Source of the DNA: Flavobacteriales bacterium
GTDB taxonomy: Bacteria > Bacteroidota > Bacteroidia > Flavobacteriales > ECT2AJA-044
Length of the DNA: 64,000 nucleotides
Direction of reading: 5' to 3'
Assembly: GCA_965660515.1 (NCBI GenBank)
Contig: CBFIAJ010000003.1
Span: forward strand, 27,805 to 91,804
Shown one piece after another: positions 3,564-35,376 of this stretch. Every line of letters begins with the position of its first letter. The stretch's first letter is position 1. A program made the position numbers and the translations under genes. The notes below the pieces were generated by a model. It had not been told where the DNA came from, searched no databases, and saw only the letters and a program-made list of their open reading frames with translations.

Positions 3564-3597
3564 GGCCGCTATCCGACTTGGGTAGCGGCTTTTTTAT
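3564..3597 (+). terminator. Rho-independent terminator
   Basis: GCCGCTATCC-gactt-GGGTAGCGGC followed by TTTTTT, 24 nt after the stop at 3540. Confidence 0.7.
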
Positions 3598-3628
3598 TTA
3601 CACCTTTGCACCTTAATTCAGATACAAG

Positions 3629-6101: not shown

Positions 6102-6102
6102 A

Positions 6103-8592: not shown

Positions 8593-8638
8593 AAGGGGTT
8601 TCTTTTTGGATAGCCTAAATTAGATAAATTGTTTTTGG

Positions 8639-9166
8639 ATGAAGCATTCGATTTTTATCGTCCTTCTAATTAGTATGTTCTCGTGCTCCTTGAGCGCAGT
8701 AGCTCAGGAAGAATTGTTACCGAGCAACTCGTACACCGAGCCCTGCGAAACGGTCGGACACGGGCAATTTCGTTTTTGGGTTGGTAATTGGAATGTATAC
8801 GACACCTTTGGAAATCAAGTTGGCACCAATAAAGTTCAGCTTATTCTGAGGGGTTGTGTTTTATCGGAAAATTGGACGTCCAGTTCCTTTGGGAATGGGA
8901 AGAGTTACAATTCTTATGATCCTGAATTGAACAGTTGGTTCCAAACGTGGGTAGATCAATGGGGATCAACGATTCATTTTAAAGTACATTGGGTTGAAAC
9001 GAAGATGATCTTCAAAGCGGAAAAAGAGGATTCCACGGGAACCCTGCATTACTTGATGACATTCACCCCATTACCGAATGGTGAAGTGGTCCAAAACTGG
9101 TGTGCAACCAGGGATTTTGAAACATGGACTTCTATGTTTTACGGAATTTATAGAAGAAAAGAATGA
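8639..9166 (+). CDS. Secreted hypothetical protein
   Basis: 175 aa with signal peptide MKHSIFIVLLISMFSCSLSAVAQ, Trp-rich. Its stop overlaps the next start (ATGA). Confidence 0.6.
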   Translation: MKHSIFIVLLISMFSCSLSAVAQEELLPSNSYTEPCETVGHGQFRFWVGNWNVYDTFGNQVGTNKVQLILRGCVLSENWTSSSFGNGKSYNSYDPELNSWFQTWVDQWGSTIHFKVHWVETKMIFKAEKEDSTGTLHYLMTFTPLPNGEVVQNWCATRDFETWTSMFYGIYRRKE

Positions 9167-10164
9167 GGCTTTTTCTATTCGCTTTTTTGATACCCTCCCT
9201 AATTCAGGGTCAAGTTGAACCGAATGCCAAAAAGATTCACGGTGTAGCTTGGGTTTCGAACCGTGAGGTTCCAGAAAAAGAAACCTTGAAATCTGTTGAT
9301 CAAATTCGAGCCAATTGGATTTGCTTAATCCCTTTTGGCTTCGCCAAAGAAAAAGAGCCCACAGTGTATTTTAATAGCGATCGACAATGGGAAGGAGAAA
9401 CTCCGGAAGGTATTAGGGCGCTGGCAAAAAACGCAAAGGATTTGGGTTACATGATAGCGATAAAGCCTCAACTGTGGATTATGAACGGGGTATATACAGG
9501 TCGTTGGGTTTTCAAGAAAGAAGAAGATTGGGAGATTCTGGAAAATACTTACCGAACGTATATACTCGCCTTTGCAAAAGTAGCGCGCGAGGAAAATGCG
9601 GATCTTTTTATTATCGGCACCGAATTGGATGCGTTTGCCGCGGCTCGACCAGAGTACTGGAATGGGTTAATCGACTCCATCCGGACCATTTATAAGGGTC
9701 CCATCACCTATGCATCCAATTGGGATTCATATTACTTAATCCCTTTCTGGGCACAACTCGATTATTTTGGAGTAGATGCCTACTTCCCTATTTCGCTTAG
9801 GAAAAAACCAAAACAAGCCGATGTTGAGCGCGCGTGGGACGAGATAATATTTGATTTAGAGCGATACGTTGAACCATTTGACCTACCTATACTGTTTACA
9901 GAGTATGGCTATCGGTCTGTGACGGGCGGATTAAGCGAGCCGTGGGATTCGGGAAATAAAGGTGAATACAATCCCGAAATTCAGTCCCTGGGTATCATGG
10001 GACTATACGAATCGGTTTGGAATAGACCCACCTTTGCAGGTGGATTTTTATGGAAGTGGTTCGATCGGCCGGAAAATGCCGGTGGAGAGGGTCATACAGG
10101 CTTTACACCTCAAAACAAACCTTCTTCCGAGCAAGTCCGTTCTTTTTTCAAAGACCGTTATTAA
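9163..10164 (+). CDS. Putative clan GH-A (TIM-barrel) glycoside hydrolase
   Basis: 333 aa with a signal peptide. IGTELD and FTEYGYRS look like the acid/base and nucleophile Glu strands of (beta/alpha)8 glycosidases. The family assignment is uncertain. Confidence 0.55.
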   Translation: MRLFLFAFLIPSLIQGQVEPNAKKIHGVAWVSNREVPEKETLKSVDQIRANWICLIPFGFAKEKEPTVYFNSDRQWEGETPEGIRALAKNAKDLGYMIAIKPQLWIMNGVYTGRWVFKKEEDWEILENTYRTYILAFAKVAREENADLFIIGTELDAFAAARPEYWNGLIDSIRTIYKGPITYASNWDSYYLIPFWAQLDYFGVDAYFPISLRKKPKQADVERAWDEIIFDLERYVEPFDLPILFTEYGYRSVTGGLSEPWDSGNKGEYNPEIQSLGIMGLYESVWNRPTFAGGFLWKWFDRPENAGGEGHTGFTPQNKPSSEQVRSFFKDRY

Positions 10165-20443: not shown

Positions 20444-21273
20444 ATTATATCGAAGTAGCATGGAATCTGAATGAGGAAGATATCCAACGAGTTTATCTTA
20501 TTGATATGCTCGATTCGGCAGGAGCGGATTCTGTAATCGAAGAAGCGGAGCAATTGATGGCCTATTTTCCGGAAGATACATTCAATAAAGAGCTACTCAT
20601 CGAGCATTACGCTTTTGGAGATCTACCCGAATTTGAAAGTCGAACCGTACAACAGCAAAACTGGAATGAAACTTGGGAAAAGAGTTTTGACCCCATTGAA
20701 ATAGAGAACAAGTTGTATTTACGAGCCTCTTTTCATGCGAGTCGCGCCGAGGAGTTCGATCGTGAAATAGTGATTACTCCGAAAATGAGCTTTGGAACGG
20801 GTCATCACAGCACCACGTATTTAATGTTGTCGTACCTATTAGAATATCCGGCCGTGGGCAAGCGTTTTCTTGATATGGGTGCAGGAACGGGTGTTTTGGC
20901 GATTTTAGCCGCACAACAAGGAGCATCTGAGGTGTGGGCTGTAGACATTGACGAATGGGCGTTTGAAAACGCGAAAGAAAACGCTGAAATGAACGGGGTT
21001 GATGGCTCGGTAGATTTACGCATTGGAAGTTCAGAGCAAATAGAAGATATCGAGTGCGATATTATTTATGCGAATATAAACCGCAACATTCTACTTGATC
21101 AGATTGACGAATATGGCGCTTGCTTGAAAGAGGGCGGTGCTCTATTTATGAGCGGATTTTACACGGAGGATTTGCCTCTAATTGCCGAAGCAGCCCGTAA
21201 ATATGGATTTGAATTAGAAGATAGTCGGGAACAAAAGAATTGGGTTGCAGCCCGCTGGCAGAAACAGATATGA
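20440..21273 (+). CDS. prmA: Ribosomal protein L11 methyltransferase
   Basis: PrmA-like layout with FGTGHHSTT and the SAM motif DMGAGTGVLAI. Overlaps the tpiA stop by 4 nt. Confidence 0.8.
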   Translation: MNYIEVAWNLNEEDIQRVYLIDMLDSAGADSVIEEAEQLMAYFPEDTFNKELLIEHYAFGDLPEFESRTVQQQNWNETWEKSFDPIEIENKLYLRASFHASRAEEFDREIVITPKMSFGTGHHSTTYLMLSYLLEYPAVGKRFLDMGAGTGVLAILAAQQGASEVWAVDIDEWAFENAKENAEMNGVDGSVDLRIGSSEQIEDIECDIIYANINRNILLDQIDEYGACLKEGGALFMSGFYTEDLPLIAEAARKYGFELEDSREQKNWVAARWQKQI

Positions 21274-24200
21274 AGTATTTCCTTTCCGTAGTGCTTTTAA
21301 TTTCCATGAGCTTAGTCAATATGGCCGAGGGGCAAAGAATACGCTCTTTTAGTGACGATGGCGCTACTTTTTTAAACGAATTAAGCACAATCCTACTCGA
21401 AGGCCAAAACGGGGAAGCTTCGGTAGCGTCTATGGATATTTTCAAATCCTATTGGATTTCAGGCGTATATACGGCAGATGAAGAAGTTCAAATCATTTCT
21501 ATGTCTAACCAAATGCTCAAAAAAAGGGTCCGCCCTTTCCCGGGTTTTATGGATTACGTAGAAGCCTTGATTGCGGTAGCCGATTCAGCAGATGATTTAG
21601 TTACATCGAGTTGGTTTCAAAGTACAGCGCAAATCATTGATTCAAAATCGGGCCGAAGTATTGATCAGTACATGCTTCGATCGAAAGAATTGTTTCGCAA
21701 TCGAATCCTGTTTAAGTCGGCAGCACTGGAATGGCGTTGGATTGGTGGTTTAGCGGCCTTCCGGCCGGATGAGGCCGGAATTGTAGATACAGATGAAGGT
21801 GCGCTCATTTGCTATTCAAAGAAGGACTCGAGTGCGGTGTATAACACGCGCATTGCCTTTAATCTAATGGCCGATGAACTAACGGGTCAAGGCGGTGAGC
21901 TGTATTGGACCCGTGCCGGGATCAGTGAAGACTCTCTTCGTGCAGAGTTAGAAACGTATTCCATTAGAACGGATCGTACAGAATGGAAAGCGGATTCTGT
22001 TACGCTTTATAGCAAGTTTTATATTACAGAGCCTATGCTGGGATCGCTCGAAGAGAATATCTTGGCCAGTGCTCGCGAAGGGAACTATCGCTTCCCTGTA
22101 TTTACCAGTTACAATAAGGAATTTCAAATTCCAGATTTCGTTGAAGGCGTGTACTATGAGGGTGGATTCAGTGCCCAAGGGGATCGATTCATCGGCTACG
22201 GTACAGAAGAAAGAAAGGCGAAAATGCTTTTTGAATTTGAGGATGCGCCCCGTTTAAAGGCACTCAGTAATCGTTTCGTTTTAGGTGAAAAGGAAATCAT
22301 TGGCGGAGATTGCCGAATCATGGTAACCATAGAAGAAGATTCGCTTTATCATCCGAAGACACAATTGCGTTTTTTCATTGATGAGCGTCTGCTTTCGCTT
22401 TATAGAGAAGATGAAGGCCTAGCGCAACGCCCCTATTCCAATAGCTATCATAAAGTTGAGATGTATTTTGATCGGCTCGAGTGGGATATGGATGAACCCG
22501 TCATGAAACTGAGCAATTTACAGGCCGGTGATGTAAACCCCGTAGTACTCGAGAGCTTCAACTTTTATCGCGATGAGCGTTTCGACCAACTCCAGGGAAT
22601 GGACGATTCGAATGTGCTTTATGTTTTAAAGAAAATGTGGGAGCGCTCGGATCATCAGGAAGAGTTCTGGATCGAAGAAGTAGCTCAATACCTCCGCATG
22701 GAGCTACATCAGTGCAAACTCCTGATGATGGAAATGACCATTATGGGCTTTGTAAACTACGATTTGGAAGAAGGGCGCGTAAAGTTTGAGAAGCGCATGT
22801 TTGATTATATCAATGCCCGTGGTGGTTTTATTGATTACGACATTATTCGATTTGTCTCGGTAGCCGAAGAAGAGAATGCACGACTTAATTTGCTGAATCA
22901 AGATCTTGAGCTCTACGGCGTACGCCCTATTCTACTGAGCGACAGTCAGAAAGTGGTGTTGTTTCCAGCAGGAGGATTCATGGTTTTGAAGGAGGATCGA
23001 GACTTTAATTTTGGTGGTACCATTCAGGCCGGACGCTTTGATTTTATGGGGCGCGACTTCTTTTTTGAGTACAAGAATTTTCGAATCAATATGAATACCA
23101 TTGATTCCATGAAATTCTTGGTTCCTTCGTTTGAAGCCGATGAATACGGTCGAAGGGAATTGGTTCCTATCAAGAACAAGCTCCAGGATATGACGGGTGA
23201 ATTGTTTATTGACAAGCCCAATAACAAATCGAGCCGGGCTGTATTCCCCGAATATCCCATTTTCAGGTCTGGGAACGACTCGTACGTATACTGGGATGAT
23301 CGCCGCATATTCAACGGGGTTTATGATCGCTCGAGGGTATATTTTCATGTAGAACCCTTTGAAATTGATAGTCTTGACTCTTTTGAAACAGAAGGTCTTG
23401 CCTTCAACGGTCAGTTTTATTCAGGTGATATCTTCCCTATGTTCGAGGAAGATTTAAAAGTGATGCGCGATTATTCGCTCGGCTTTATCACGACCACACC
23501 GAGCACGGGGTATGCCGCCTACGGCGGGAAGGGGCAATATGTGGATACTATAAAAGTCAGTAACGATGGAATTGAAGGCAAAGGTCGATTGGATTATCTC
23601 ACGAGTTCGGTTCACACGACCAATTCGCTCTTCTTTTTAGATTCCATGAATGCAATAGCAGACACTTTTTTACTTCGTGCTCAGTTGGCGGGAACGGAGT
23701 ATCCGCCCGCTAGGGCGGAAAATGCTCGGGTGCATTGGGAACCCTATAATGATGTTATGTTCATCAAGAATGGGAAAGGGCAGCCCTTTAGAATATTCGA
23801 TATTAATGCCGAGCACAAAGGCTTCCTTGCCTTGCGCCCTAGTGGGCTACAAGGAGGTGGAAGAACTGATTTTGAGAATGCGCAAACGGATGCGGCGCTT
23901 TATACGTTCGACCACCATCGCCTTTACAGTGACGCTTTAAATTTTAGGGTGCATTTGGTCTTGGATACAAAATGGTCTTTCTCTTTAAACAATGCACGAG
24001 GCGATATTGATTTCAGTCAACGACGTGGAGAATTCACTTTGAATGACCCGGGTTATCCTATTGAATTACAAGATAATAGATATTCTGTTTACATGGATCA
24101 CGCTGTGTGGGACATGGATGCAAAAACGTTTGATTTGGATCAGTTAGCCACGGCGCGACCTGCATATATGGTGAGTAACCATCCGGACCAGGACAGTCTT

Positions 24201-25688
24201 AATTATGAAGCTAAAACGGCAAAATACTATATGGCCGATACGCTTTTAGAGGGGTTTGGCGTGGATCAAATGGCGGTTGCCGATGCGTGGATTTATCCGG
24301 ATAGCGCTTTTGTTTCTATTGGTAGAAATGCCAACATGGCTCGTTTGAGGAATGCAAACGTATCCGTGTTGTGGAAGGATCCTTATCATGAATTTTACGA
24401 AGCAACGTTGAAAGTTAAAGGGAGAAATGATTATTGGGGTAATTCGAAGATCGATTATTATGATCGATATGAAGAGGCCTTCCCAATAATCATGGATACG
24501 ATGTACGTCGATGCGGCCTATCAGACGCTCGCCCACGGAGTGGTGCCGAGTGAACAAGAGTTTTACCTCTCACCTTTCTTTAGTTTCGAAGGGGAAGTTT
24601 TTGTTTACGGGAACGATCCAGATTTTGTATTTGATGGCTTCACGGAAATTCAACATGCTTGCGATGCCGTGGTTACCGATAAAATTCCTTTTCGATCAAA
24701 GATCGACCCAGGGCGAATTGCCGTGGACTTAAGTCGTTTAGAGGCTGAAAGAGAAAGAAATCAATTGTATTCGGGATTGTTCTACACACCTGATCCCATG
24801 GATATGACGAGTAATTTCCTATCGAAAAAAGCGAATGCTTACTCAGAGCCTAATTTTACAAGTACGGGTTGGTTGATTTACGATGAAAGTTCCAACGAAT
24901 ACCAGATATCGACCGAAGCTCGTTTGGCGAATGAGGATATCCCCGATCAATTCATGGCCTTTAACAATAAAACATGTGAAGTTCGCGGATCGGGAGCATT
25001 TGAATTAGATAAGGATTTACAGGGAGTGTATTTGAATACACGGGGTGAGTATGTGCATGATTTAGGTCGAGATACCATTGAGATGGATCTTTTCATGGGC
25101 TTAGGTTTCTTTTTTAACAATGAGGCGCTCGGGCTGATGGCGAATAACATAAATGACGACAACAGCTTAAAAGGTGTTGATTTAGACCGCCCCGCGTATA
25201 GAGACGCGCTTATTTCGATTTTAGGCAAAGAAAAAGCCCTTCTGTACATGGAGGAAGTAAGAACCTATGGTAGCGTTGAAAAACTCCCGAAAGAATTGAG
25301 GCAAATGACTCTGGTGTTAACGGATGTTCAATGGGCCTGGAACGATTATACGAGCAGTTACCTTACTGTGGGCGATATCGGTATTGGAAGTATTGGCGAA
25401 TACCAGGTGAATAAAAAAGTACAAGGTAAAATGGAACTTGTGCGAAAGAGACGCCAGGATGAGTTCACTCTTTACTTGCAGTTAGACCGGAGGAACTGGT
25501 ACTACTTTGCACTTCGCAGAAACATCATGCAGATTCTATCTTCCGATGAGTTGTTCAATGATGAAATCAAAGATTTAGACTTAAAGAAACGACAGGTTAA
25601 ATTAGACAATGGACAATACTTCCAATATACAATTAGTACAAAGCGAAGAGTTGATCAATGGTTGTCGCGATTTGACGAATTCTATTAA
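21270..25688 (+). CDS. Large secreted protein of unknown function (1472 aa)
   Basis: Long uninterrupted ORF. Trimming to the ATG at 21270 gives signal peptide MKYFLSVVLLISMSLVNMAEG. The start overlaps the prmA stop (ATGA). I recognise no motif. Confidence 0.75.
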   Translation: MKYFLSVVLLISMSLVNMAEGQRIRSFSDDGATFLNELSTILLEGQNGEASVASMDIFKSYWISGVYTADEEVQIISMSNQMLKKRVRPFPGFMDYVEALIAVADSADDLVTSSWFQSTAQIIDSKSGRSIDQYMLRSKELFRNRILFKSAALEWRWIGGLAAFRPDEAGIVDTDEGALICYSKKDSSAVYNTRIAFNLMADELTGQGGELYWTRAGISEDSLRAELETYSIRTDRTEWKADSVTLYSKFYITEPMLGSLEENILASAREGNYRFPVFTSYNKEFQIPDFVEGVYYEGGFSAQGDRFIGYGTEERKAKMLFEFEDAPRLKALSNRFVLGEKEIIGGDCRIMVTIEEDSLYHPKTQLRFFIDERLLSLYREDEGLAQRPYSNSYHKVEMYFDRLEWDMDEPVMKLSNLQAGDVNPVVLESFNFYRDERFDQLQGMDDSNVLYVLKKMWERSDHQEEFWIEEVAQYLRMELHQCKLLMMEMTIMGFVNYDLEEGRVKFEKRMFDYINARGGFIDYDIIRFVSVAEEENARLNLLNQDLELYGVRPILLSDSQKVVLFPAGGFMVLKEDRDFNFGGTIQAGRFDFMGRDFFFEYKNFRINMNTIDSMKFLVPSFEADEYGRRELVPIKNKLQDMTGELFIDKPNNKSSRAVFPEYPIFRSGNDSYVYWDDRRIFNGVYDRSRVYFHVEPFEIDSLDSFETEGLAFNGQFYSGDIFPMFEEDLKVMRDYSLGFITTTPSTGYAAYGGKGQYVDTIKVSNDGIEGKGRLDYLTSSVHTTNSLFFLDSMNAIADTFLLRAQLAGTEYPPARAENARVHWEPYNDVMFIKNGKGQPFRIFDINAEHKGFLALRPSGLQGGGRTDFENAQTDAALYTFDHHRLYSDALNFRVHLVLDTKWSFSLNNARGDIDFSQRRGEFTLNDPGYPIELQDNRYSVYMDHAVWDMDAKTFDLDQLATARPAYMVSNHPDQDSLNYEAKTAKYYMADTLLEGFGVDQMAVADAWIYPDSAFVSIGRNANMARLRNANVSVLWKDPYHEFYEATLKVKGRNDYWGNSKIDYYDRYEEAFPIIMDTMYVDAAYQTLAHGVVPSEQEFYLSPFFSFEGEVFVYGNDPDFVFDGFTEIQHACDAVVTDKIPFRSKIDPGRIAVDLSRLEAERERNQLYSGLFYTPDPMDMTSNFLSKKANAYSEPNFTSTGWLIYDESSNEYQISTEARLANEDIPDQFMAFNNKTCEVRGSGAFELDKDLQGVYLNTRGEYVHDLGRDTIEMDLFMGLGFFFNNEALGLMANNINDDNSLKGVDLDRPAYRDALISILGKEKALLYMEEVRTYGSVEKLPKELRQMTLVLTDVQWAWNDYTSSYLTVGDIGIGSIGEYQVNKKVQGKMELVRKRRQDEFTLYLQLDRRNWYYFALRRNIMQILSSDELFNDEIKDLDLKKRQVKLDNGQYFQYTISTKRRVDQWLSRFDEFY

Positions 25689-26048: not shown

Positions 26049-26051
26049 GTG

Positions 26052-26125
26052 TGACTCTGCAGGGATTCGAACCCCGAACCTCCTGATCCGTAGTCAAGTG
26101 CTCTATCCAGTTAAGCTACAGAGCC
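26052..26125 (-). tRNA. tRNA-Arg (anticodon ACG)
   Basis: The reverse complement folds by hand into a cloverleaf. Acceptor GGCTCTG/CAGAGTC, D arm GCTT..GAGC, anticodon arm CTTGA-CTACGGA-TCAGG, 5-nt variable loop, T arm CGGGG-TTCGAAT-CCCTG, discriminator A. CCA is not encoded. Confidence 0.9.
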
Positions 26126-26294: not shown

Positions 26295-26326
26295 AAAAAA
26301 GGTAGGCATCCTTTTGGACACCTACC
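26295..26326 (-). terminator. Orphan minus-strand hairpin plus U-tract inside the long intergenic region
   Basis: On the minus strand: GGTAGG-(14-nt loop with inner TCC/GGA pairs)-CCTACC followed by TTTTTT. No annotated minus-strand gene lies upstream of it. Confidence 0.4.
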
Positions 26327-26368
26327 CTTGTTTGCGGGTTTAATCAAAACTTTCTATTTCTTCTACGT

Positions 26369-26470
26369 GGTGTGTAGAATTAGGAAGTCATGAACACAAT
26401 GGGTGAGCGTTTTACCTACGCGACGCTCAAAGGTGTGTAGCATAATTAGGAAAAAAGCTACGGTCATGAA
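26369..26470 (+). repeat. Imperfect direct repeat module GGTGTGTAG..AATTAGGAA..GTCATGAA (two copies)
   Basis: Copy 1 is 26369-26394 (GGTGTGTAGAATTAGGAAGTCATGAA). Copy 2 is 26432-26470, the same blocks with 3-nt and 10-nt insertions. The hairpin GAGCGT-12 nt-ACGCTC (26405-26428) lies between them. Confidence 0.6.
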
Positions 26471-26479
26471 ACGTTGTTT

Positions 26480-26509
26480 ACGGCGTTCCGAGCCGTGGTT
26501 TTTTGTTTT
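26480..26509 (+). terminator. Plus-strand hairpin plus U-tract inside the intergenic region
   Basis: ACGGC-gttccga-GCCGT, then GG TTTTTT G TTTT. No annotated + strand gene lies upstream, which suggests a short transcript or an attenuator. Confidence 0.45.
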
Positions 26510-26701
26510 ATGTCAGAATACGAAACCCTCCACAATTAAAAGTTATCTGGTTGTACAAATCCGAAATCTTGGATTTCTTCTATTGAATAACCGAAAGCGA
26601 GGAAGAGGTTGATTAAGAATTGCATGATATTTGTTTTTGTGATTAAACCTGAGACAAATATCCAAGAAGTACATGGCATCACACAGGAGATTTCTCTCCA
26701 A

Positions 26702-26712
26702 TTTGGACAACG
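26702..26712 (+). repeat. 11-mer TTTGGACAACG, copy 1
   Basis: Exact repeat of 26851-26861. The core TTTGGACA also occurs at 26313-26320 inside the orphan hairpin. Confidence 0.6.
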
Positions 26713-26850
26713 CTATAACACTCGACTTGCTTTACAACAGTCTTTTAATATATTTCCGCTGTATTAAAATACGAACCCTTCCATTATCTTTTTCTTTTGA
26801 CTACAAACATCGTATAGTTTCATAGGCTACGAAACGAAAGTTTTTTCTAT

Positions 26851-26861
26851 TTTGGACAACG
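26851..26861 (+). repeat. 11-mer TTTGGACAACG, copy 2, abutting the start codon of the first islet gene
   Basis: Exact repeat ending 1 nt before the ATG at 26862. Confidence 0.6.
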
Positions 26862-28274
26862 ATGAAGAATTTAGATAGATACAATCGTATAACCTCTCTC
26901 CAACAATCTTTGAATCAAGCCGAGAGCAATGTCTTGTCTCTGTATCTCAATTCTTTTTATGCGCCTTTTAGTTCCGATGGGAGCGTTTATGAAAGTGTAT
27001 TTAAAGAAATGGATGGTAATACTGACTATGACCAGTTTCTGATTAATTTAAATTGGGGTAATAAAAATGATGATTCAGTTAGGAAGAATTTAGAGCGATA
27101 TGAAGAGAAACTTTTCGAGAGCTTAGTCATTCCCATTAATGTTAACAGAAAGGAATCTCTAGAATCCCTTGATAGAGATTACATAAGAATTCTTTGGTAT
27201 TTGCAGGTCGCTAAAAGACTATTGATACTAGGTAGTATTGATAATGGTCTCCGGATTTTAAGGAAAATTCTCAAGATTGGTAAAAGGATTGAAAGCTTTG
27301 ATTTTGTTTTGGCATCATTGTATCAAATTTCTAGCCTTTCCACTTTTCGGCAAATACCAATTAAATCTTTGAAAATAAGAGATGAAATAGCCTATTACGA
27401 AAAGGCACGAAACGAATACAATAGGTCTCATTTGCTTCGAGAGGATGTCTTCCGCTATAATCTAATTAGTAACCTGAGCGAATCGGAAGGGCTCGAACTC
27501 AGCAGACTATTTCAGCAGTCAGAAGAATTGGTAAACACAAAACACCCTTCAGTCAAGCGCAATGTCCTTTACGCTCAATTACTATATTTTGATAAACAAA
27601 AAGAATATTCAAATTGCCAAGAAATTTGTAAGACTTTGGATTCTTTGATAGAATCAAATTATTCTATTCGAAAAAAAAGAGAGCGAGATACATTAAAGGT
27701 TAACCTAGTGCTGTTCAGTATTTTAGAATTGGATTTCTCGAAATCAAAAGAGCTGGTTTCTGGCTTGCTAAATGACGATTCTATTTCTGGACCGACAAAA
27801 AACTTTCTCGATGTCTTGTACGCCCGGATTTTGCTTAATAACGGAGAGGTTAAAGAATCGATTAGGTACACAGATCAACGTTTATCGGAAAAATCTTTTT
27901 CGATGCTATATAAATCGCAAATGGAATTAGTTAAAGGAGTGGCAAGCTTTCTGTCAGGAGACTATAAATATTCAATCGGAATATTTTCCGATATAGAGGA
28001 TCTCAAGAAAGACAAAACCGGCTGGAATTTTTTTGCAAGAGGATATCTAATATTGGCCTATTTCAAAGCTAACATGTATGATGTCGCGTTAAACGAGCTT
28101 GAAAATTTCAAACGCTATTTACACGGAAAGAAGTTAGATGAACGCCAGTCTTCTATTTTCTTGAGAATCAAATCTATAGTGCTGAACTCTCAACCTTCAA
28201 AATTAAAAGGACATTGGGATCCAACTTCACCGGAAATATTCGATATGGAGAAACTCTTCGCCGATCATATTTAA
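26862..28274 (+). CDS. Hypothetical helical-repeat protein, islet paralog A (470 aa)
   Basis: Long ORF in the AT-rich islet with an ATG start. No signal peptide, TM helix or nucleotide-binding motif. Clearly paralogous to the next ORF. Confidence 0.75.
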   Translation: MKNLDRYNRITSLQQSLNQAESNVLSLYLNSFYAPFSSDGSVYESVFKEMDGNTDYDQFLINLNWGNKNDDSVRKNLERYEEKLFESLVIPINVNRKESLESLDRDYIRILWYLQVAKRLLILGSIDNGLRILRKILKIGKRIESFDFVLASLYQISSLSTFRQIPIKSLKIRDEIAYYEKARNEYNRSHLLREDVFRYNLISNLSESEGLELSRLFQQSEELVNTKHPSVKRNVLYAQLLYFDKQKEYSNCQEICKTLDSLIESNYSIRKKRERDTLKVNLVLFSILELDFSKSKELVSGLLNDDSISGPTKNFLDVLYARILLNNGEVKESIRYTDQRLSEKSFSMLYKSQMELVKGVASFLSGDYKYSIGIFSDIEDLKKDKTGWNFFARGYLILAYFKANMYDVALNELENFKRYLHGKKLDERQSSIFLRIKSIVLNSQPSKLKGHWDPTSPEIFDMEKLFADHI

Positions 28275-28275
28275 A

Positions 28276-29775
28276 ATGAATAATCGATACAAGGTACTGG
28301 ATCGATTGGGAGTTGTTCTTGAGAAGACGTCTGAAGAGGAATTTGAAACTTTGTTACGAACTTTACGGGCACATAATTCGAAATTTGGAAACTCGAATAA
28401 ATATATTGAACAACTGATTCAATTAAGGGAATCATTTTTTGATATTAATGAAATTTCAGATGCTCAAAGGAAGTCTCTTGAAAGACTAGAAATTAAAATA
28501 TTTGAAAACTCGTCGTTTGAGTTTAATCTGCAACGCGAAAGCTATTCCTCTTTTGGTCTTAGTAGGATTCGGATTTCAAAATACTTCCTTTTTGCTGAAA
28601 TAAGTATCGAGAAAGGAAGTAATCAATTATGCATATACTTTTTACGCAAGGCATTGAAGACAGGGCGTAGAATTGAACAGTATGATTCAATAGTATATGC
28701 ACTGGAAAAATTGTCAAAACGCTTCAGCTCTTCCGTTGATTTGAAATCGATGCTTAAAACTTCCCAAGAGCTGGAACTAGCGCGTAAAGAACTTATATTT
28801 TATAATAATGCGAATGACCTATTGGAAAGAATACGGTTTAATTCACATAGAGAATCAGATTTTTTTAACATCTCCGATTCTGATAAAATGCGGGTATACT
28901 CGGATTATAAAGAGACTAATTCCATTAGGACGAAAAGGCTGTTATTGTATTGCAAAATTGGCTTATTGGAATTGAAAGATCCGAGTTTGAGTAAGGCTTA
29001 TACCAAACGCAATTTATTGGCAATGTTCAATCTGCTTTCTGACCTATCCAAAGAAAGCCCTCACTTGTTCCCTAAAAGAGAAGGTTTAATTATTGACTTA
29101 AATAAAAATATATTGAGACTTTATTTTGGTGAAGTCGAAGAAACCCACCATTATCTGCAAACGGTAAAGAATGAGTTTAAAAAATATCCACACTACCATG
29201 CCATCCTTATAAAGCACTTCGACAGGATTAATTTATTTAGGGACAGCAGTGACTTAAATATCTTAGGAGATAATGTATCCGCCAAAGAAGAGCGTGTCAA
29301 TTCCTTTAATTTGGCTATAGGAATGCTCATTTCAGGAAAACCCGCCTTAAAGATTTTACATGAAGAATTTCAGAATATCGATGGGGTAGATAAATCCTTT
29401 TATGTGAAGAGTTACATGATTCTTTCATCTCTGATTAAATCAGATTTTGACCTAGCAACATATTACTTTGATAGTCTGCGATATTTATATAGAATCCACC
29501 CTACTTTACACATTAGTTTATATAAAAACAAAATTAAGATGTTTGAATCCTGGGCCAAAAAGGGATTTCAGGGGCAAATCCAAGACCTCCCGAAGGAAAT
29601 CATCAATCCGTTAAAGGAACATTACGAAAACACTTGGAATCCCTTATCTGCGGATATGATCCCATTACACCTTTGGCACAACCCCAGAGGGCTCCCGAAC
29701 CACAAAGAGGTGTATGCGCACCTGTTTGAGTGCAAAAGAAAAAAGACCCTGGAACAGGGCCTTTTCATAGATTAA
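28276..29775 (+). CDS. Hypothetical helical-repeat protein, islet paralog B (499 aa)
   Basis: Starts 1 nt after the stop of paralog A (TAA A ATG). It shares RK.LER.E.K.FE..., LRK.LK.G.RIE..D and a C-terminal W(D/N)P.S block with A. Confidence 0.75.
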   Translation: MNNRYKVLDRLGVVLEKTSEEEFETLLRTLRAHNSKFGNSNKYIEQLIQLRESFFDINEISDAQRKSLERLEIKIFENSSFEFNLQRESYSSFGLSRIRISKYFLFAEISIEKGSNQLCIYFLRKALKTGRRIEQYDSIVYALEKLSKRFSSSVDLKSMLKTSQELELARKELIFYNNANDLLERIRFNSHRESDFFNISDSDKMRVYSDYKETNSIRTKRLLLYCKIGLLELKDPSLSKAYTKRNLLAMFNLLSDLSKESPHLFPKREGLIIDLNKNILRLYFGEVEETHHYLQTVKNEFKKYPHYHAILIKHFDRINLFRDSSDLNILGDNVSAKEERVNSFNLAIGMLISGKPALKILHEEFQNIDGVDKSFYVKSYMILSSLIKSDFDLATYYFDSLRYLYRIHPTLHISLYKNKIKMFESWAKKGFQGQIQDLPKEIINPLKEHYENTWNPLSADMIPLHLWHNPRGLPNHKEVYAHLFECKRKKTLEQGLFID

Positions 29776-29809
29776 AAAAAAGCCTCTCGAAAATAACGAG
29801 AGGCCTTTA
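29774..29809. terminator. Strong hairpin between convergent islet gene B and the T9SS cargo gene
   Basis: A8-GCCTCTCG-aaaataa-CGAGAGGC-CTTTAAG. The U-tract is perfect on the minus strand and weaker on the plus strand. Confidence 0.7.
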
Positions 29810-29811
29810 AG

Positions 29812-32181
29812 CTATTGCTTCATCCATTTTATATTGGATCCATCGCTCAGACGGAAGAAGTATACTCCCGAGTCGTACTCCTTGATATCAAGGGTAATAC
29901 TCGCATCTGAACTCTTTAGTGCAAATTGATTTAACACGCGACCCGTTACGTCAATTAAGTCGATTTGAAGATCCGATCCGTCCACATTGCGCTCAAGGGT
30001 TATGATCGTCGAAGCGGGATTTGGATAAGCAATCAACTGAAGTGCATCGCGTTCAATAATTCCAATACCACTACCACTATCCGCTACTTCGAACTGATCG
30101 ATACCGGCTTCAACGATGTTTCCACCACCGGAAGTTAAGTCGCTAATTTCAGCACGAAACTGTACGGCACTTAAATCATTCGTATAGTCGAGAATTCGGA
30201 AATTAGATTGAACCCACTGACTCTGTGGATTGGCATCTGCAATACGTTCTATTTCATAAATGTTCGATCCGTCAGATAAGGTAAGGACCAGGGTATCATC
30301 GTACGGAGCACCCGATCCGCCCGCTAGGGCGATCCAAGTGTATACGCTCATGTACGGATCCGCATAAGCCGATAAATCCATGATAGGAGAGCGCAACAAA
30401 GTAAAACCATCGTCCACATCATCGGTACCAAAGGTTCCTCCGCCATTACCGGTTACAAAAGCTTTATCTGAGCAGTCTCCCTGAACATCTGTTTCTGGAT
30501 TTATTTCAACACCTCCGCTGTACGTTCCAACAGGCTCGCCTCGCTCCCAAGCGCCAGTAGTGGCATTCCCGATTTCTGTCCACCCATAGTCAAAAGCGAA
30601 ATCGTCGTAATACCCTTCCGTTAAATTGATTGTTAAACTGGATGTACTTCCATCAATTACTTCAGTTGCACAATACGTACGGTAACCCCAAGCTCCAGCA
30701 GTAACTTCGTACGTGCCTTGGAAAATAGAATTAAATACGACTTGACCATTGGCATCGGTAGTTCCCGAATACTCATTAAAGCCATCACTTAAAAATACTT
30801 CGATACCGCTGATGGCAGAACCGCTTTCGTCGAGAACGCTACCGTCGATACTGGTTGATCCAACAGAACTTAGAGCAGCATCTTGAGTTACCAAAACGCC
30901 GTTGGAAAGCACCACTTGAAAAGTATCCGCTATGTATCCTGGAGCTGAATAAACGGCGTCGTACGTTCCGGCCGTTGCAAGGCCGGTAGCATAGAAACCA
31001 GATAAATCAGAAGGCTTGGAAACACCTGTGTTTAATAATTCGATGGTCGCCGTAGCAATGGGCATTGTTGTTCCCGCATCGGTAACCGTACCTTCTAAAT
31101 AGCAAGCTTGCGTTTCTGTATAACCGAGAATGAATAAACCGCCCTCGATATCACTTGCATATAAATTCCCGCTCGGGGCAAAAGGGTATAGTCCCCAGCA
31201 GCCATTGAAACCACCACCCGAAAGCGGCGATGTATCATATTGCCCCACACGAATAATGTTGTACGGGTAGGTTACATCATGCACAATGGCTCCGCTGGTA
31301 TACCAACTCGTGTAAATTGCCTCACCTTTAACATGCGTGTTGTGTGGAATCACGCCGTTATTCGGTTCGGGTTGGATACGATCTACTTCGGTGATGTTCG
31401 CTAGGTTCGTGACATCATAGGCAGCAACATAAGCACCCTGAACTTCGTCTGTAGTGAATACGTGCGTTCCGTCCTGACTAATCCATCCGTTGTGACAAAA
31501 AGCATCTGGAGTTGCTGCAGCTCCAATATTATTGGAAATCATTGCCGGATTAGAAACGTCGATGACTACAATTTCCCCTTGGTAAATAGCGCCTCCCCAT
31601 AAGGTGTCGCCACGCGCCATTCCATCGTGCAGGTAGTATTCGTTATAGGTTCCTATTACTGGCGGGGCCGTAGCATTCGCGTCTACATCTAGAAGAATTG
31701 CTCCCCCTACTCCATTATTGGCACCAAATAAGTAGCAAATCCCATTTTCATCAATGTATAAATTGTGTGCTCTATCAAGCGTTGAACCCAATGCTTGCGG
31801 GAAGTACGTGAAAAAGGTCGGACTGGGATTCGTGGCGATGTCGCTTAAGTCGATGATCAACAGTCCTTGCGAAGTCCCAGAATACGAATCATGCGTTACA
31901 TATGCGTAATGCCCCCAGGTTTTAATATCGCGCCAGGTAGATGAAGGCCCCGGAATAAAGGCTTTTTCGATAGGAGTGGCCGGATTCGAAACATCCACAA
32001 TACTCGTTCCTGTTCGCGTACCCACAATGGCGTATTCATTCCCAACAGAGTCAACATAGCCCCAAATATCGTTCAAGTCTTGAGTATAAGGTAGTTGACC
32101 CAACAAGGTCATGTTCAAATTGCCCTGACCTAGAGCGCCTAAAAAGGCGAAGGTCATCAGCGTAAAAAAGATTCTTTTCAT
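29812..32181 (-). CDS. LVIVD-repeat / choice-of-anchor-B-like beta-propeller protein with carboxypeptidase-regulatory-like domains and a T9SS sorting domain
   Basis: Trimming to the ATG at 32181 gives signal peptide MKRIFFTLMTFAFLGALGQG. The N-terminus (DIWGYVDSVGNEYAIVGTRTGTSIVDVSNPATP...WRDIKTWGHYAYV) is LVIVD-like. The C-terminus is LIAYPNPASTIITLE...YFFRLSDGSNIKWMKQ. The longer ORF-track start would overlap parC. Confidence 0.75.
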   Translation of the reverse strand: MKRIFFTLMTFAFLGALGQGNLNMTLLGQLPYTQDLNDIWGYVDSVGNEYAIVGTRTGTSIVDVSNPATPIEKAFIPGPSSTWRDIKTWGHYAYVTHDSYSGTSQGLLIIDLSDIATNPSPTFFTYFPQALGSTLDRAHNLYIDENGICYLFGANNGVGGAILLDVDANATAPPVIGTYNEYYLHDGMARGDTLWGGAIYQGEIVVIDVSNPAMISNNIGAAATPDAFCHNGWISQDGTHVFTTDEVQGAYVAAYDVTNLANITEVDRIQPEPNNGVIPHNTHVKGEAIYTSWYTSGAIVHDVTYPYNIIRVGQYDTSPLSGGGFNGCWGLYPFAPSGNLYASDIEGGLFILGYTETQACYLEGTVTDAGTTMPIATATIELLNTGVSKPSDLSGFYATGLATAGTYDAVYSAPGYIADTFQVVLSNGVLVTQDAALSSVGSTSIDGSVLDESGSAISGIEVFLSDGFNEYSGTTDANGQVVFNSIFQGTYEVTAGAWGYRTYCATEVIDGSTSSLTINLTEGYYDDFAFDYGWTEIGNATTGAWERGEPVGTYSGGVEINPETDVQGDCSDKAFVTGNGGGTFGTDDVDDGFTLLRSPIMDLSAYADPYMSVYTWIALAGGSGAPYDDTLVLTLSDGSNIYEIERIADANPQSQWVQSNFRILDYTNDLSAVQFRAEISDLTSGGGNIVEAGIDQFEVADSGSGIGIIERDALQLIAYPNPASTIITLERNVDGSDLQIDLIDVTGRVLNQFALKSSDASITLDIKEYDSGVYFFRLSDGSNIKWMKQ

Positions 32182-32224
32182 ATTGAGTAGATATATAAGA
32201 TTGCGAAGGTACTTAAATAGTCGC

Positions 32225-34903
32225 TTAATCGAGTTCAAGACTAATTTGACCGGCGTCCGCGTCATCATCTTCGTCCTTACTAGTAATAGACGCAGGAGAA
32301 GCTTCTTCGGTGGGGTCCGAAGCTTTTGGTGGTACAATAGGTTCCTTTTCCGTATTGTTTCCAGGAGCCTCACGGCTTGATGTGATCTCCGGCTCTGGAG
32401 GGTCTTTTTCAATGGGTTCTAAAGCGCTTATGGCACGGACTTTATACTTCGTCAATTGGTTCCCCATAGCCTTCACACCTTTCGTAGAAATGAACTCGGC
32501 TATATTCACTTCTTCATTTGGTCGGCGATCTTTATTTGCCTGCTTGGTAAATTCAATATCAATCAAAGGAATAAAGTCGCTGGTAACTAACTCTAAGTAA
32601 GTGCCTTCACTCTCCGTTAAGAAATCTACTTTCTTCAGCTTGTCGACCAATTCAGGGATAAAACGCTTTACATAGTGCATTTCCTTTTCCCCTTCAAAAT
32701 AGACTATGCTAAGTGGTTTTTCCGGATTGAATTTTTCAAGAAGAACCACATCTTCTTCAAAATGAGTTGCCAAGTCAAAGCCCAATAAACGGTACGAACC
32801 CGCTTGGGAAACTTCGAGAATTCGATCATCTCCGCTAAAAGCCCCCAAAAGCTCTCCGCGGCCTTCTGTGTTCAGTTTGCGCACGGTATCGTCGAACCAT
32901 ATTTTTTGAGGGTTCAATGTGCTCACCCCCTCTTCTCGAAGATCGATTCGTTTGATTGGATTTTTCGTGAGAATATTTCCTTTCGCGCCTCTTCCTTTGA
33001 TTAAAACTTCGGAAAAATCGAGTTCGAAATTTGTTTTCTTTAGACGTTTGAGTTGACGCAAGTAAATCATTACTCTTTCCGCTTCGCCATTGGGGTTGGC
33101 GGTAAAGTACATCACTTCCGATTTGGCATTTCCGGCCGTTAGGTCGTATTCGCGATCCCGAGTAATGCTCGTGACTGAAAACCTTTTGACGTAATTTGAT
33201 CCATTGGCACCATCGCGGTAAATCAGGTTGTAAACCGTCCGTTTATCCTGCTTTTTCCAAACGGCAACATGTATAATATCCTTTCCAACAAAAGTCTTTT
33301 TATCGACTTTGGTGACCATCATTTTACCGTCTTTTCTGAAGACGATAATATTATCAATGTCGCTGCACTCGGTAACGAATTCATCCTTCCGCAAGGAAGT
33401 TCCAATAAAGCCCTCGGCGCGATCCATATACAAGCGCTCATTGGCAATAGCCACTTTGGTAGCGATAATTTCATCAAACGCCCGAATCTCTGTTTTGCGT
33501 TCCCTTCCCTCCTTGTATTTGTTTTTTAGGTTTTTGAAATAGTCAATGGCAAACTCCACAAGATTAGCCAGGTGATGTTTTACCTGTTCAATTTTCTCTT
33601 CAAGACCTTCAATCAGTGCTTGGGCCTTATCTAAATCGAATTTCGATATTCTCTTAATCCGAATCTCTGTCAAACGCACAATATCGTCGCGTGTAACCTC
33701 ACGCAGAAGATGCTTCGTATGAGGCTTAAGACCTTTATCTATGGCATCTATAACACCCTCCCAGGTCTCTTCCTCTTCTATGTCACGATAAATGCGCTCT
33801 TCAATGAAAATTCGCTCGAGATTCGCGAAGTGCCAATGCTCTTCATGTTCATCGAGTTCAATTTCCAATTCCCTTTTAAGGATTGCGAGCGTGTTTTCCG
33901 TACTCAGGCGAATTAAGTCACTAATTCCTGCGAAAAAAGGCTGATCATTCTGAATTACGCAGCATAAAGGGCTGATACTTACTTCACAGTCTGTGAAAGC
34001 GTACAGCGCATCAATAGTCTTGTCTGGAGACAACTGTGAAGGAATATGAACCAGTATTTCTACGTGTTCCGCGGTGTTGTCTTCAATTTTCTTAACCTTG
34101 ATTTTTCCGCGATCATTTGCTTTGAGAATACTATCAATAAGCGAAACGGTAGTCGTTCCAAACGGAATTTCGCTGATCCTTAATAGGTTCTTATCCTCAA
34201 TATTGATTTTGGCGCGCACCTTAATGCGGGAACCTCGTTTTCCGTCATTATACTGCGAGAAATCGGCTATACCGGCAGTAGGAAAGTCCGGGAACAGTTT
34301 GGGTTTCTTTCCTCGCAACGTATCGATGCTCGCATCAATAAGCTCTACAAAGTTATGAGGCATGATTTTAGTCGATAACCCGACCGCAATACCTTCAACT
34401 CCTTGAGCCAGAAGAATTGGAAACTTAGCCGGAAGAAAAACCGGCTCTTTACCCCTACCGTCATAACTCGCTTGCCATTGAGTCACTTTCGGACTAAAAA
34501 CGACGTCTAAGGCGAATTTAGAGAGGCGAGCCTCAATATAACGCGGAGCTGCAGCGCGATCGCCCGTGTATATATTCCCCCAGTTTCCCTGACAGTCAAT
34601 GAGTAAATCTTTTTGACCTAGCTGAACAAGCGCATCTCCAATAGAGGCATCACCATGAGGGTGGTATTTCATGGTATGGCCTATGAGGTTCGCTACCTTG
34701 TGGTAGCGCCCATCATCCATTTCCTTTAAACTGTGAAGTAATCTTCTTTGAACCGGTTTAAATCCATCTTCAAGAGAAGGTACTGCGCGCTCAAGAATTA
34801 CATATGAGGCATAGTCCAAGAACCAGTCTTTATACATTCCTGATACCTTGGTACTCGTTGCCGCTCCGTCCATTTCACCCATTGGCTCCAACTCTTCTTC
34901 CAT
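32225..34903 (-). CDS. parC: DNA topoisomerase IV subunit A (type IIA topoisomerase A subunit)
   Basis: KPVQRRLLHS and the active-site context AAPRYIEARL. It lies in an operon with the B subunit. The ParC (not GyrA) call rests on operon context and size. The ATG at 34903 is preferred. Confidence 0.8.
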   Translation of the reverse strand: MEEELEPMGEMDGAATSTKVSGMYKDWFLDYASYVILERAVPSLEDGFKPVQRRLLHSLKEMDDGRYHKVANLIGHTMKYHPHGDASIGDALVQLGQKDLLIDCQGNWGNIYTGDRAAAPRYIEARLSKFALDVVFSPKVTQWQASYDGRGKEPVFLPAKFPILLAQGVEGIAVGLSTKIMPHNFVELIDASIDTLRGKKPKLFPDFPTAGIADFSQYNDGKRGSRIKVRAKINIEDKNLLRISEIPFGTTTVSLIDSILKANDRGKIKVKKIEDNTAEHVEILVHIPSQLSPDKTIDALYAFTDCEVSISPLCCVIQNDQPFFAGISDLIRLSTENTLAILKRELEIELDEHEEHWHFANLERIFIEERIYRDIEEEETWEGVIDAIDKGLKPHTKHLLREVTRDDIVRLTEIRIKRISKFDLDKAQALIEGLEEKIEQVKHHLANLVEFAIDYFKNLKNKYKEGRERKTEIRAFDEIIATKVAIANERLYMDRAEGFIGTSLRKDEFVTECSDIDNIIVFRKDGKMMVTKVDKKTFVGKDIIHVAVWKKQDKRTVYNLIYRDGANGSNYVKRFSVTSITRDREYDLTAGNAKSEVMYFTANPNGEAERVMIYLRQLKRLKKTNFELDFSEVLIKGRGAKGNILTKNPIKRIDLREEGVSTLNPQKIWFDDTVRKLNTEGRGELLGAFSGDDRILEVSQAGSYRLLGFDLATHFEEDVVLLEKFNPEKPLSIVYFEGEKEMHYVKRFIPELVDKLKKVDFLTESEGTYLELVTSDFIPLIDIEFTKQANKDRRPNEEVNIAEFISTKGVKAMGNQLTKYKVRAISALEPIEKDPPEPEITSSREAPGNNTEKEPIVPPKASDPTEEASPASITSKDEDDDADAGQISLELD

Positions 34904-35376
34904 CAATCTTTGGTTTTCGCCGCTTTATTCATTCGCTTAATCTTGTCTAATGACTTTCTTAGGTGCCTTCTTTTTGCTTTTGATAAAAAAGTGATGTTGA
35001 GTCTACGCACTGTGACTCCCTTTTTACTCTTTATGCGAATAGTCACTGTTCTTCTTAAAAAGCGCGATATTTTATAGTCTACTCGTTTTGGGAACTCGGC
35101 CGTTTTTGTCAGTTGAGGGAAGACTTTTTCTAAAACAAAATACCTCGACTTAAAAATGAGCACTTCGCCATCGCTATCGTATTCAAAGTAAGGTTTACCT
35201 AAAAGTAAGAGAACGACGGAAGTCAAAATGGCTCCAAAACTGAGCCATCGATTCTCGAAATAGTCTGTCAGGGTTCCATCTACTCCAGAAACAAGTGAAT
35301 CGATAATTATGGCTAAAACCAAAATCGCGTAAAGAAGCACGAAGCGTTCCTTAAGATGTTCATTCGTTAATCTCAT
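34903..35376 (-). CDS. Small membrane protein with a highly basic C-terminal tail, embedded in the topo IV operon
   Basis: 157 aa with two hydrophobic helices, then [42 protein letters not shown]. Its start overlaps the parE stop (ATGA) and its stop overlaps the parC start (TGATG). Confidence 0.65.

Follow-up and report, generated by a model that had tools for sequence, protein, structure and literature searches.

ORF A and ORF B are two adjoining open reading frames (ORFs) of a Flavobacteriales bacterium, located in a window of 64,000 nucleotides (nt; assembly GCA_965660515.1, contig CBFIAJ010000003.1, positions 27,805 to 91,804 of the forward strand; all coordinates below are those of the window), where they form one locus with several very small ORFs on the opposite strand. 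The described systems closest to this locus are the comQXP and agrBDC loci, the RRNPP receptors (Rap/Rgg/NprR/PlcR/PrgX/AimR) and the BT2802/RusR family. The comQXP and agrBDC loci consist of a hypervariable block with sharp borders in conserved surroundings, one border lying inside the receptor gene, which keeps a conserved output end, and several ancient classes of each locus coexist per species and are common to several species. Cytoplasmic peptide-receptor signalling with specificity classes is not known to us outside Firmicutes and the mobile elements that they carry. The Bacillus comQXP locus is polymorphic (PMC4408185), and RRNPP systems have so far been described only in Firmicutes (PMC10075063). 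BT2802, also named RusR, is the candidate positive regulator of the ribose polysaccharide utilization locus (PUL) of Bacteroides thetaiotaomicron (bioRxiv 10.1101/574913; PMC8121099; PMC12596196), which is needed for ribose-induced transcription of rus (bioRxiv 10.1101/574913; PMC8121099) and whose deletion abolishes growth on ribose and leaves ~10% of induction (bioRxiv 10.1101/574913; PMC8121099; PMC12596196).

By comparison of sequences across related genomes, ORF A, most of ORF B and the region upstream of them form a set of very old allelic classes at a fixed chromosomal site. The reading that we favour, although only tentatively, is that A and B may be peptide-linked tetratricopeptide repeat (TPR) regulators maintained under balancing selection in the manner of pherotypes. 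The central features of the locus are as follows.

26520..29542: hypervariable cassette of ~3.0 kb, containing the micro-ORFs, the control region, A and residues 1-425 of B
26862..28274, plus strand: ORF A, 470 amino acids (aa), predicted TPR solenoid of the RusR-like superfamily
28276..29775, plus strand: ORF B as a whole, 499 aa, paralog of ORF A
28276..29542, plus strand: variable part of ORF B, residues 1-425, paralog of ORF A
29543..29775, plus strand: conserved C-terminal tail of ORF B, 74 aa from W426, with the family motif WNPLSADMIPLHLW; the last 27 residues are predicted with low confidence

The cassette comprises the 340 nt upstream of A, the whole of A and the first 425 residues of B. 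In comparison with L003, a genome of the same species, the sliding identity of the window is 98-100% until about 26500 and 44-86% beyond it; no blastn match was found between 26885 and 29542, and identity is 96.7% from 29543 on (97-98% from 29546 on in comparison with L007). The flanks of L003-L006 and L007 are 96-100% identical in DNA to those of the window, while the cassette alleles of such genomes are 25-45% identical to each other, and no nucleotide similarity was found between the window and L003-L006 or L007 in about 26520-29542. For the window and L003, the synonymous divergence (dS) of the flank genes is 0.037-0.058 with a nonsynonymous divergence (dN) of at most 0.004, while dN is 0.64 for A (40% identity) and 0.76 for B(1-425) (31% identity). 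The same pattern occurs in a second species (L001 versus L002), with a flank dS of about 0.03 and dN values of 0.60 for A and 0.97 for B.

Both borders of the cassette are sharp. The left one lies just past a plus-strand terminator, at ~26510, while the right one lies inside B at W426, such that alleles with ~30% identity elsewhere share the last 74 residues without a single amino-acid difference (dN 0 between the window and L003). Two versions of this B tail exist, which track the species and not the allele. Near the border, dS of the tail is raised to 0.216 for the window and L003 (flanks 0.04-0.06; the tail has only 74 codons) and is 0.073 for L002 versus L001 (2-5 times the 0.03-0.06 of more distant genes), a pattern that theory predicts where neutral sites are in linkage with a balanced polymorphism.

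At least four A classes and a larger number of B classes were distinguished, and these classes are common to species that are ~75% identical in DNA, with the classes of A, B and an upstream micro-peptide reassorting among genomes. The 380 nt upstream of A are 83.8% identical between the window and L002 of the second species and 83.9% between the window and L020, in comparison with 74.5% between the window and L003, and this upstream region thus follows the allele class, not the species. As between-species dS is saturated, only dN and within-species values were used. The window-type allele present in the second species (L002) shows dN values of 0.111 for A and 0.181 for B in comparison with 0.044-0.149 for the flanks, a divergence like that of ordinary genes, and the classes therefore predate the species split and are each under purifying selection, the within-class dN/dS of A and B being 0.06-0.13. 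The module minus the last 74 residues of B thus consists of very old mosaic allele classes, found both within and across species. In L020 (~379-384), which has a window-type allele, the start codon of A is CTG instead of ATG (GACAACGCTGAAT), hence the gene-caller protein of 425 aa, which could reflect either a non-canonical start or a recently inactivated allele.

Two alleles were recovered from one sample in two cases, L013 with L020 (ERZ23491561) and L016 with L027 (ERZ27264830), and the contigs carrying them start and end at the same flank positions. The ends of contigs L013, L014, L020, L015-L019 and L027-L029, which range from 3 kb to 153 kb, fall within tens of bases inside the conserved flanks, and contigs of 135-153 kb are among those stopping at the borders. 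These ends show that the assembly graph branches at this locus in many samples, and such breaks are the usual assembly signature of coexisting alleles. That the pattern is instead an artefact, arising from assembly chimeras or from functionless and decaying fast-evolving genes, is very improbable. All comparison sequences are metagenome contigs or metagenome-assembled genomes (MAGs), many of them short, which would favour it, but the same junctions were reproduced by samples and assemblers independent of each other (L003-L006 and L009, from distinct ENA, JGI and Logan sample records), the locus is present on long contigs (129 kb, 236 kb and 153 kb), the ORFs of all alleles are 458-499 aa in length with intact reading frames, and the low within-class dN/dS and confident structure models of A and B also speak against it.

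The GC content of the window cassette is 0.342 in comparison with 0.437 for the rest of the window, and every pair-bearing locus shows the same tendency (0.33-0.38 in the cassette, 0.43-0.49 in the flanks). Apart from terminators, no direct or inverted repeats and no att-like sites were found around the cassette, and no silent donor copies were detected, A and B being the sole family-profile matches in the 64-kb window. An intraspecific hypervariable block between conserved flanks, with several coexisting classes, is one trait of pherotype-type loci, and the A/B locus has this trait. The cassette resembles comQXP and agrBDC in being a sharp-bordered block, in having a border inside B with a conserved end and in its coexisting trans-species classes, but differs from them in that it contains no histidine kinase, isoprenyl transferase or AgrB peptidase and in that its components reassort.

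ORFs A and B are separated by one base (TAA-A-ATG). The earlier note, which had been made from the sequence of the window, gave these lengths and this junction correctly, and the translational coupling that it proposed agrees with the 1-nt gap of the window but not with the arrangement in other alleles, in which a 0-nt gap (L002), overlaps of 4-17 nt or gaps of 155-162 nt occur. The blocks of homology noted at A 74-144 and B 65-134 lie within the sole significant BLASTP segment (A67-157 versus B58-147; 38% identity, one gap, E=3e-10), while comparison of the homolog profiles of A and B by hhalign extends the similarity to 422 columns (probability 99.1%, E=7.7e-19), which shows that the paralogy is full-length and colinear. 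The W(D/N)PxS block that was said to end both proteins is real in both (A 452-456 and B 454-458) and is part of a family-wide C-terminal motif, W..SPELI.F..WF; B, however, does not end there but extends for ~40 further residues.

The statement that neither protein has a recognisable domain held in searches of Pfam, NCBIfam, PADLOC, PHROGs and PDB sequences, in which A or B singly had no significant match (the best TPR signal of A in Pfam being TPR_14, E 0.045), and the suggestion of an all-alpha, TPR-like fold is confirmed by structure prediction and profile comparison alike. AlphaFold2, run with an alignment of 60-67 sequences, predicts both proteins as all-helical solenoids with mean confidence scores (predicted local distance difference test, pLDDT) of 94.3 for A and 88.1 for B, in which residues 473-499 are below 50; the N-terminal ~100 residues of A are predicted as short helices. 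The top Foldseek matches of A and B in PDB are TPR proteins and generic solenoids, with template modelling (TM) scores of 0.38-0.44 for A and lower ones for B, while a Foldseek search of A against BFVD gave generic TPR solenoids only. LGN/Pins, consensus TPR, the kinesin light chain (KLC) and subunits of the anaphase-promoting complex (APC) are matched by Foldseek and by the family profile against PDB, the consensus TPR at E 1.9e-10, and members of the A/B family match Pfam TPR models. A and B are thus predicted TPR solenoids and belong to the TPR-repeat superfamily. The best structural matches of A, namely LGN/Pins, kinesin light chain and Hop (Foldseek E about 1e-4), have a superhelical groove for extended peptides; the likeness is generic (~13% identity at the above TM-scores), and these proteins are eukaryotic scaffolds that are functionally unrelated. 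The A/B pair is still the least explained content of the window, as the note had considered it.

Close homologs of the pair are scarce, 5.8 billion proteins having yielded 8 clusters of the A type and 5 of the B type, while an exhaustive search with the profile of ORF A retrieved 450 clusters at E <= 1e-3, nearly all of 490-540 aa and matching from end to end; a word-indexed profile search with the 60-member alignment gave almost no further members. These proteins are labelled in databases as 'TPR repeat protein' or 'hypothetical', the distant ones are singletons in other contexts, and the two family genomes with a named organism are of Flavobacteriales/Flavobacteriaceae. A few residues, mostly polar, are near-invariant throughout the superfamily: R79, E144, D384, G387, W388, R393, R428, W452 and E458. 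Five of 60 family members match NCBIfam NF058569 (BT2802 family ribose utilization protein), a profile of 502 positions; residues 226-499 of P0028 align with positions 219-499 (E 1.3e-11, 44 bits) and residues 8-157 of P0056 with positions 5-145 (E 3.8e-5), so that both halves of the profile are aligned colinearly, to intermediates only. A and B themselves gave no match to NF058569 at E up to 10, and the score of the best relative (44 bits) falls far short of the curated cutoff of 550 bits. They are thus a distant, colinear sister group of BT2802/RusR rather than members of NF058569, and as proteins they are new and only remotely related to a regulator family that has hardly been characterised.

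RusR is of the same phylum as A and B, is likewise all-helical, of ~500 aa and devoid of a classical DNA-binding domain, and its gene also adjoins genes for exported or outer-membrane proteins. A and B differ from it in forming a tandem pair with micro-peptide genes and allelic hypervariability, none of which has been reported for RusR, and no ribokinase, SusC/D or permease genes of the rus PUL type are found among their neighbours. This kinship brings in a second explanation, somewhat unlikely in our view, in which A and B would be RusR-like metabolite sensors regulating neighbouring genes such as the convergent LVIVD/type IX secretion system (T9SS) cargo gene, the small ORFs would encode cis-acting leader or attenuator peptides, and the hypervariability would reflect niche-specific diversification of ligands or relaxed constraint; it would parallel RusR, which is thought to sense a phosphorylated ribose derivative. 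Besides the family link itself, the near-invariant polar residues (R79...E458) could make up a conserved pocket, and T9SS cargo genes adjoin family members in three unrelated contexts. The LVIVD gene, however, is not variable (97-98% identical), and simple niche adaptation would not be expected to give rise to coexisting ancient alleles with sharp borders. The small ORFs of the cassette, to which this explanation also appeals, are given below together with the elements preceding them.

26536..26625, minus strand: micro-peptide gene, 29 aa, MQFLINLFLAFGYSIEEIQDFGFVQPDNF
26513..26533, minus strand: mini-ORF copy 1, GTG GAG GGT TTC GVA-type, encoding the hexapeptide (M)EGFVF with a stop codon, immediately behind the peptide gene
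26764..26784, minus strand: mini-ORF copy 2, ATG GAA GGG TTC GTA TTT TAA, encoding MEGFVF
26702..26712, no strand assigned: box 1, TTTGGACAACG, which reads CGTTGTCCAAA on the minus strand, a candidate operator of the peptide gene or part of its promoter
26851..26861, no strand assigned: box 2, TTTGGACAACG, abutting the ATG of A and, on the minus strand, 50 nt upstream of the -7-like box that belongs to mini-ORF 2
26655..26662, minus strand: GATATTTG, candidate -7 element, 37 nt before the peptide ATG, an invariant block of the alignment
26804..26811, minus strand: GATGTTTG, candidate -7 element, 27 nt before mini-ORF 2

The micro-peptide ORF is present in all ten loci examined, outgroup included, with a length of 20-46 aa. 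Its product is hydrophobic at the N-terminus and variable in the middle, and the C-terminus bears the motif (G/S)FVxPDxx; within-class dN/dS of the ORF is 0.05-0.24. Among 17 copies of the mini-ORFs, codon positions 1 and 2 are invariant except for ATG/GTG/ATT starts and TAA/TGA stops, while third positions vary in six of the seven codons and all flanking positions are variable; the search pattern admitted wobble variation only, and 17 of 18 expected sites matched it. Conservation of the mini-ORFs thus has period 3 across these copies. EGFVF followed by a stop was not found elsewhere in the six-frame translation of the window, and the EGFVF and FVxPD motifs are absent at the distant singletons L021, L022, L024 and L026. 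The analogy of A and B to peptide sensors, raised in the earlier note, is strengthened by the divergent micro-peptide gene and the two hexapeptide mini-ORFs directly upstream and by the distant kinship with RusR/BT2802.

The 11-nt sequence TTTGGACAACG occurs twice in 64 kb, where 0.05 occurrences would be expected. In ten of ten loci, outgroup included, each such box is followed on the minus strand, at a spacing of exactly 50 nt, by a GATrTTTG box. The GATrTTTG copy in front of mini-ORF 2 is 26-28 nt away from it and the one in front of the peptide ORF 37-38 nt away, so that an CGTTGTCCAAA box and a -7-like box precede two of the three micro-ORFs, namely the 29-aa peptide and one hexapeptide. 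The GATrTTTG box resembles TAnnTTTG, which we take to be the -7 consensus of Bacteroidota. A scan for sigma-70 promoters was uninformative (16 seen against 12.5 expected), and Bacteroidota promoters use signals other than those of the sigma-70 type.

From this arrangement a mechanism may be proposed for the favoured reading. A and B, probably as a heteromer, would be ligand-gated regulators acting via the invariant CGTTGTCCAAA boxes, which precede the two small-ORF promoters of the minus strand at a constant spacing, while the box abutting the start of A would provide autoregulation. The ligands of the TPR grooves would be encoded by the small ORFs, being either the peptide ending in GFVxPDxx, MEGFVF or both. 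Conserved partners, whether DNA, RNA polymerase or a different host factor, would be engaged by the invariant tail of B and by the conserved sequence blocks, and the variable surfaces together with the variable peptide would set a specificity on which negative frequency-dependent selection would act and so preserve the alleles, in parallel with the pherotypes of comQXP, agr and PlcR-PapR. As in RRNPP systems, the gene for a cytoplasmic TPR-type protein adjoins an ORF that is very short and whose product begins with hydrophobic residues, this ORF is divergent as in shp/rgg and prgQ/prgX, and the classes are polymorphic as in the PlcR-PapR pherotypes. The locus differs from those systems in having two receptor paralogs and two extra hexapeptide ORFs, in the lack of detectable sequence similarity or specific structural similarity (Pfam, PDB sequences and the top 50 Foldseek matches), and in belonging to a diderm of another phylum, with no helix-turn-helix (HTH) and no link to a secretion signal, exporter or oligopeptide permease being found.

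Several observations weigh against this proposal. No RNPP receptor is among the top 50 Foldseek matches in PDB, in which TM-scores do not exceed the 0.38-0.44 range, and Pfam, NCBIfam and family scans of A and B gave no sign of an HTH or any other DNA-binding domain. The link to RusR runs through intermediate proteins and scores well under the family cutoff (44 versus 550 bits), and DNA binding by RusR is itself putative. The promoters are candidates, assigned by consensus resemblance only. The micro-peptide has no canonical signal peptide (no basic n-region), and no exporter, processing or import genes adjoin the A/B locus. The identity of 25-45% between classes is, to our knowledge, lower than at known pherotype loci. 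The peptides of L003 and L013 are 79% identical, yet their A proteins are 38% and their B proteins 27% identical, and peptide identity correlates with A identity with a Spearman coefficient of 0.53 and clear reassortants; the divergence of A and B is therefore not accounted for by the peptide alone. This reassortment of peptide and A/B classes would suit the metabolite-sensor explanation, as would the invariance of the hexapeptide ORFs, which is what arrest or leader peptides would show. The small ORFs cannot, however, be leaders of A and B, because they lie on the opposite strand, and the hypervariable middle of the peptide and the tracking of the allele class by the whole upstream region are likewise at odds with that explanation. 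A broader form of the favoured reading seems rather doubtful to us, namely that Bacteroidota possess a peptide-based system of strain-specific signalling or recognition with RusR-like TPR receptors non-homologous to RRNPP, micro-ORF ligands including the directly translated MEGFVF, and an ancient trans-species balanced polymorphism in marine Flavobacteriales.

The ancestry of the module is indicated by the outgroup L030, which contains a single TPR gene (P0167, 503 aa) at the same syntenic site, together with a divergent 46-aa ORF ending in EDGFVQPDDF, mini-ORFs encoding MEGFIF and MNGFIF at equivalent places, and two copies of the box, here TTTGGACAACGCT, for which the spacing is again 50 nt. 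The TPR gene, peptide, mini-ORFs and boxes are therefore ancestral, while the A/B duplication and the GC-poor hypervariability are derived; in other words, the module is ancestral and fixed at one chromosomal site, the TPR gene having been duplicated in the lineage of the window. At every related locus the gene order is PrmA, a ~1470-aa protein, ClpS, tRNA-Arg (ACG, minus strand), A, B, LVIVD/T9SS cargo (minus strand), ParC, a 160-aa protein, ParE and YchF. The locus is a fixed syntenic site and not a presence/absence islet, and the accessory islet supposed in the earlier note is therefore not borne out, the position being the same in all related genomes seen. Single copies in a housekeeping context, which had been named as an argument against a two-gene system, do occur, in that the outgroup has one homolog in the same context and the distant family members are singletons, while the lineage of the window has a pair.

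In a third explanation, which we regard as unlikely and less probable than the metabolite sensor, the TPR pair would be an anti-phage or anti-mobile-element sensor recognising invader proteins (cf. Avs/NLR-like) in an arms race, with the peptide as a membrane-active effector and the conserved B tail coupling the sensing to this effector. The extreme diversifying or balancing pattern with its trans-species alleles, the low GC of the cassette and the hydrophobic N-terminus of the peptide are compatible with it, and the locus adjoins a tRNA gene that is used as an integration site in the outgroup. In L030, positions 1-9220, on the ClpS side of tRNA-Arg (9146-9220), contain a tyrosine integrase and an island with an N6/N4 methyltransferase-like gene and genes for HATPase_c_3 proteins and a T2SSE/STAND-like ATPase, and tRNA-Arg(ACG) beside the module is therefore an integration hotspot. 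PADLOC, however, gave no match for A, B or 60 relatives, a tblastn search of A against phage and plasmid collections found no relatives, and no NTPase, nuclease or other effector domain was detected in the proteins. The locus is moreover never absent or replaced in the genomes seen, its variation being allelic, and the module is ancestral and syntenic with housekeeping genes. The compact defence module once suggested for the pair thus found no support in the PADLOC, phage and plasmid searches or in the constant synteny of the locus.

Between the tRNA gene and the cassette lies a conserved non-coding element, and the features on this side are as follows.

26051..26125, minus strand: tRNA-Arg(ACG), conserved left neighbour, outside the variable block
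26298-26329, minus strand: terminator preceding the element
26330..26512, no strand assigned: conserved non-coding element of ~180 nt, at the left border of the cassette
26478-26510, plus strand: terminator ending the element

This element is 87-100% identical across species that are otherwise 68-75% identical in DNA, is absent from the outgroup L030, and folds well on both strands (z -3.3 and -4.4). RNAalifold gave no covariation, as the sequence is too conserved; Rfam matched tRNA-Arg only, whether queried with the locus, with the intergenic region or with the complete window. A coding function was considered and rejected, as its indels are not multiples of three and the best ORF, of 16 aa, has mostly non-synonymous differences in an alignment inspected by eye. 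The element holds an internal imperfect duplication (GTGTGTAG..ATTAGGA..GTCATGAA.AC, twice). It may be a novel small RNA or a recombination anchor.

A fourth explanation draws on this element. The peptide would be type-I-toxin-like or bacteriocin-like, the TPR proteins would be allele-specific neutralisers or immunity proteins, and the 180-nt RNA would be an antisense or antitoxin partner, the whole serving in kin discrimination. This is decidedly improbable, even beside the anti-phage sensor. A peptide of 20-46 aa with a hydrophobic N-terminus and an acidic C-terminus, a structured element that converges on the peptide gene with opposite-strand terminators flanking it, and a polymorphism pattern typical of toxin/immunity pairs would fit, but the outgroup keeps the peptide and the TPR gene while lacking the element, there is no overlap between the element and the peptide ORF, the peptide has just 12-17 residues in its hydrophobic stretch, and one class of peptide goes with very different A/B classes. 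We also know of no type I toxin-antitoxin system with TPR proteins of 500 aa.

On the other side of the pair, one further feature lies between B and the convergent gene.

29776..29808, no strand assigned: hairpin between B and the LVIVD/T9SS gene, scored by the scan as a terminator on the minus strand (LVIVD gene) only

From an A-run before this hairpin and a T-run after it, the hairpin is probably a bidirectional terminator that also ends B. The longest-ORF call of the LVIVD/T9SS gene (29812-32412, minus strand) gives 866 aa with a TTG start and an overlap of ~190 nt with the ParC ORF (32225-34906, minus strand); its true start is probably near 32184, given the 790 aa in the annotation of relatives. 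TPR family members have genes for T9SS-secreted proteins (Por_Secre_tail) next to them at L021, L022 and L024-L026 as well as the A/B module (window 29812-32184), which could be due to chance in Flavobacteriales or could hint at the regulatory target of the family. Upstream of ClpS, an ORF of 1482 aa by the longest-ORF call (21240-25688, plus strand; ~1470 aa in relatives) is without a Pfam domain and is kept in all related genomes with 88% identity across two species. With the B tail as probe, one locus each was found in the genome-contig and the metagenome-contig collections, in which the lineage is thus rare; the only GTDB species representative carrying the tail is a Flavobacteriales MAG, and the other contigs with the locus are from metagenome samples, one of them a marine metagenome.

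No description was found in the literature of a locus so organised, in which a tandem TPR pair, genes for a micro-peptide and for hexapeptides, and boxes of fixed geometry are combined in an ancient allelic cassette. Bacteroidota dominate marine particle degradation and the gut. If the favoured reading is true, a non-homologous analogue of peptide-receptor signalling in this phylum would open cell-cell communication or self/non-self recognition there to study, and peptide signalling, if confirmed, would be categorically new for the phylum. Whatever its function, the locus is a clean bacterial case of very old balanced polymorphism, with sharp borders of recombination, a local lowering of GC, elevated synonymous diversity beside it and classes predating a split of ~25% DNA divergence, and the cassette may serve as a test bed for the theory of frequency-dependent selection in free-living marine bacteria. 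The conserved six-codon genes illustrate that ORFs of this size can be detected via period-3 conservation across alleles, and the operator-like box and ligand candidates would make the mechanism of the RusR-like superfamily (450 clusters) directly testable.

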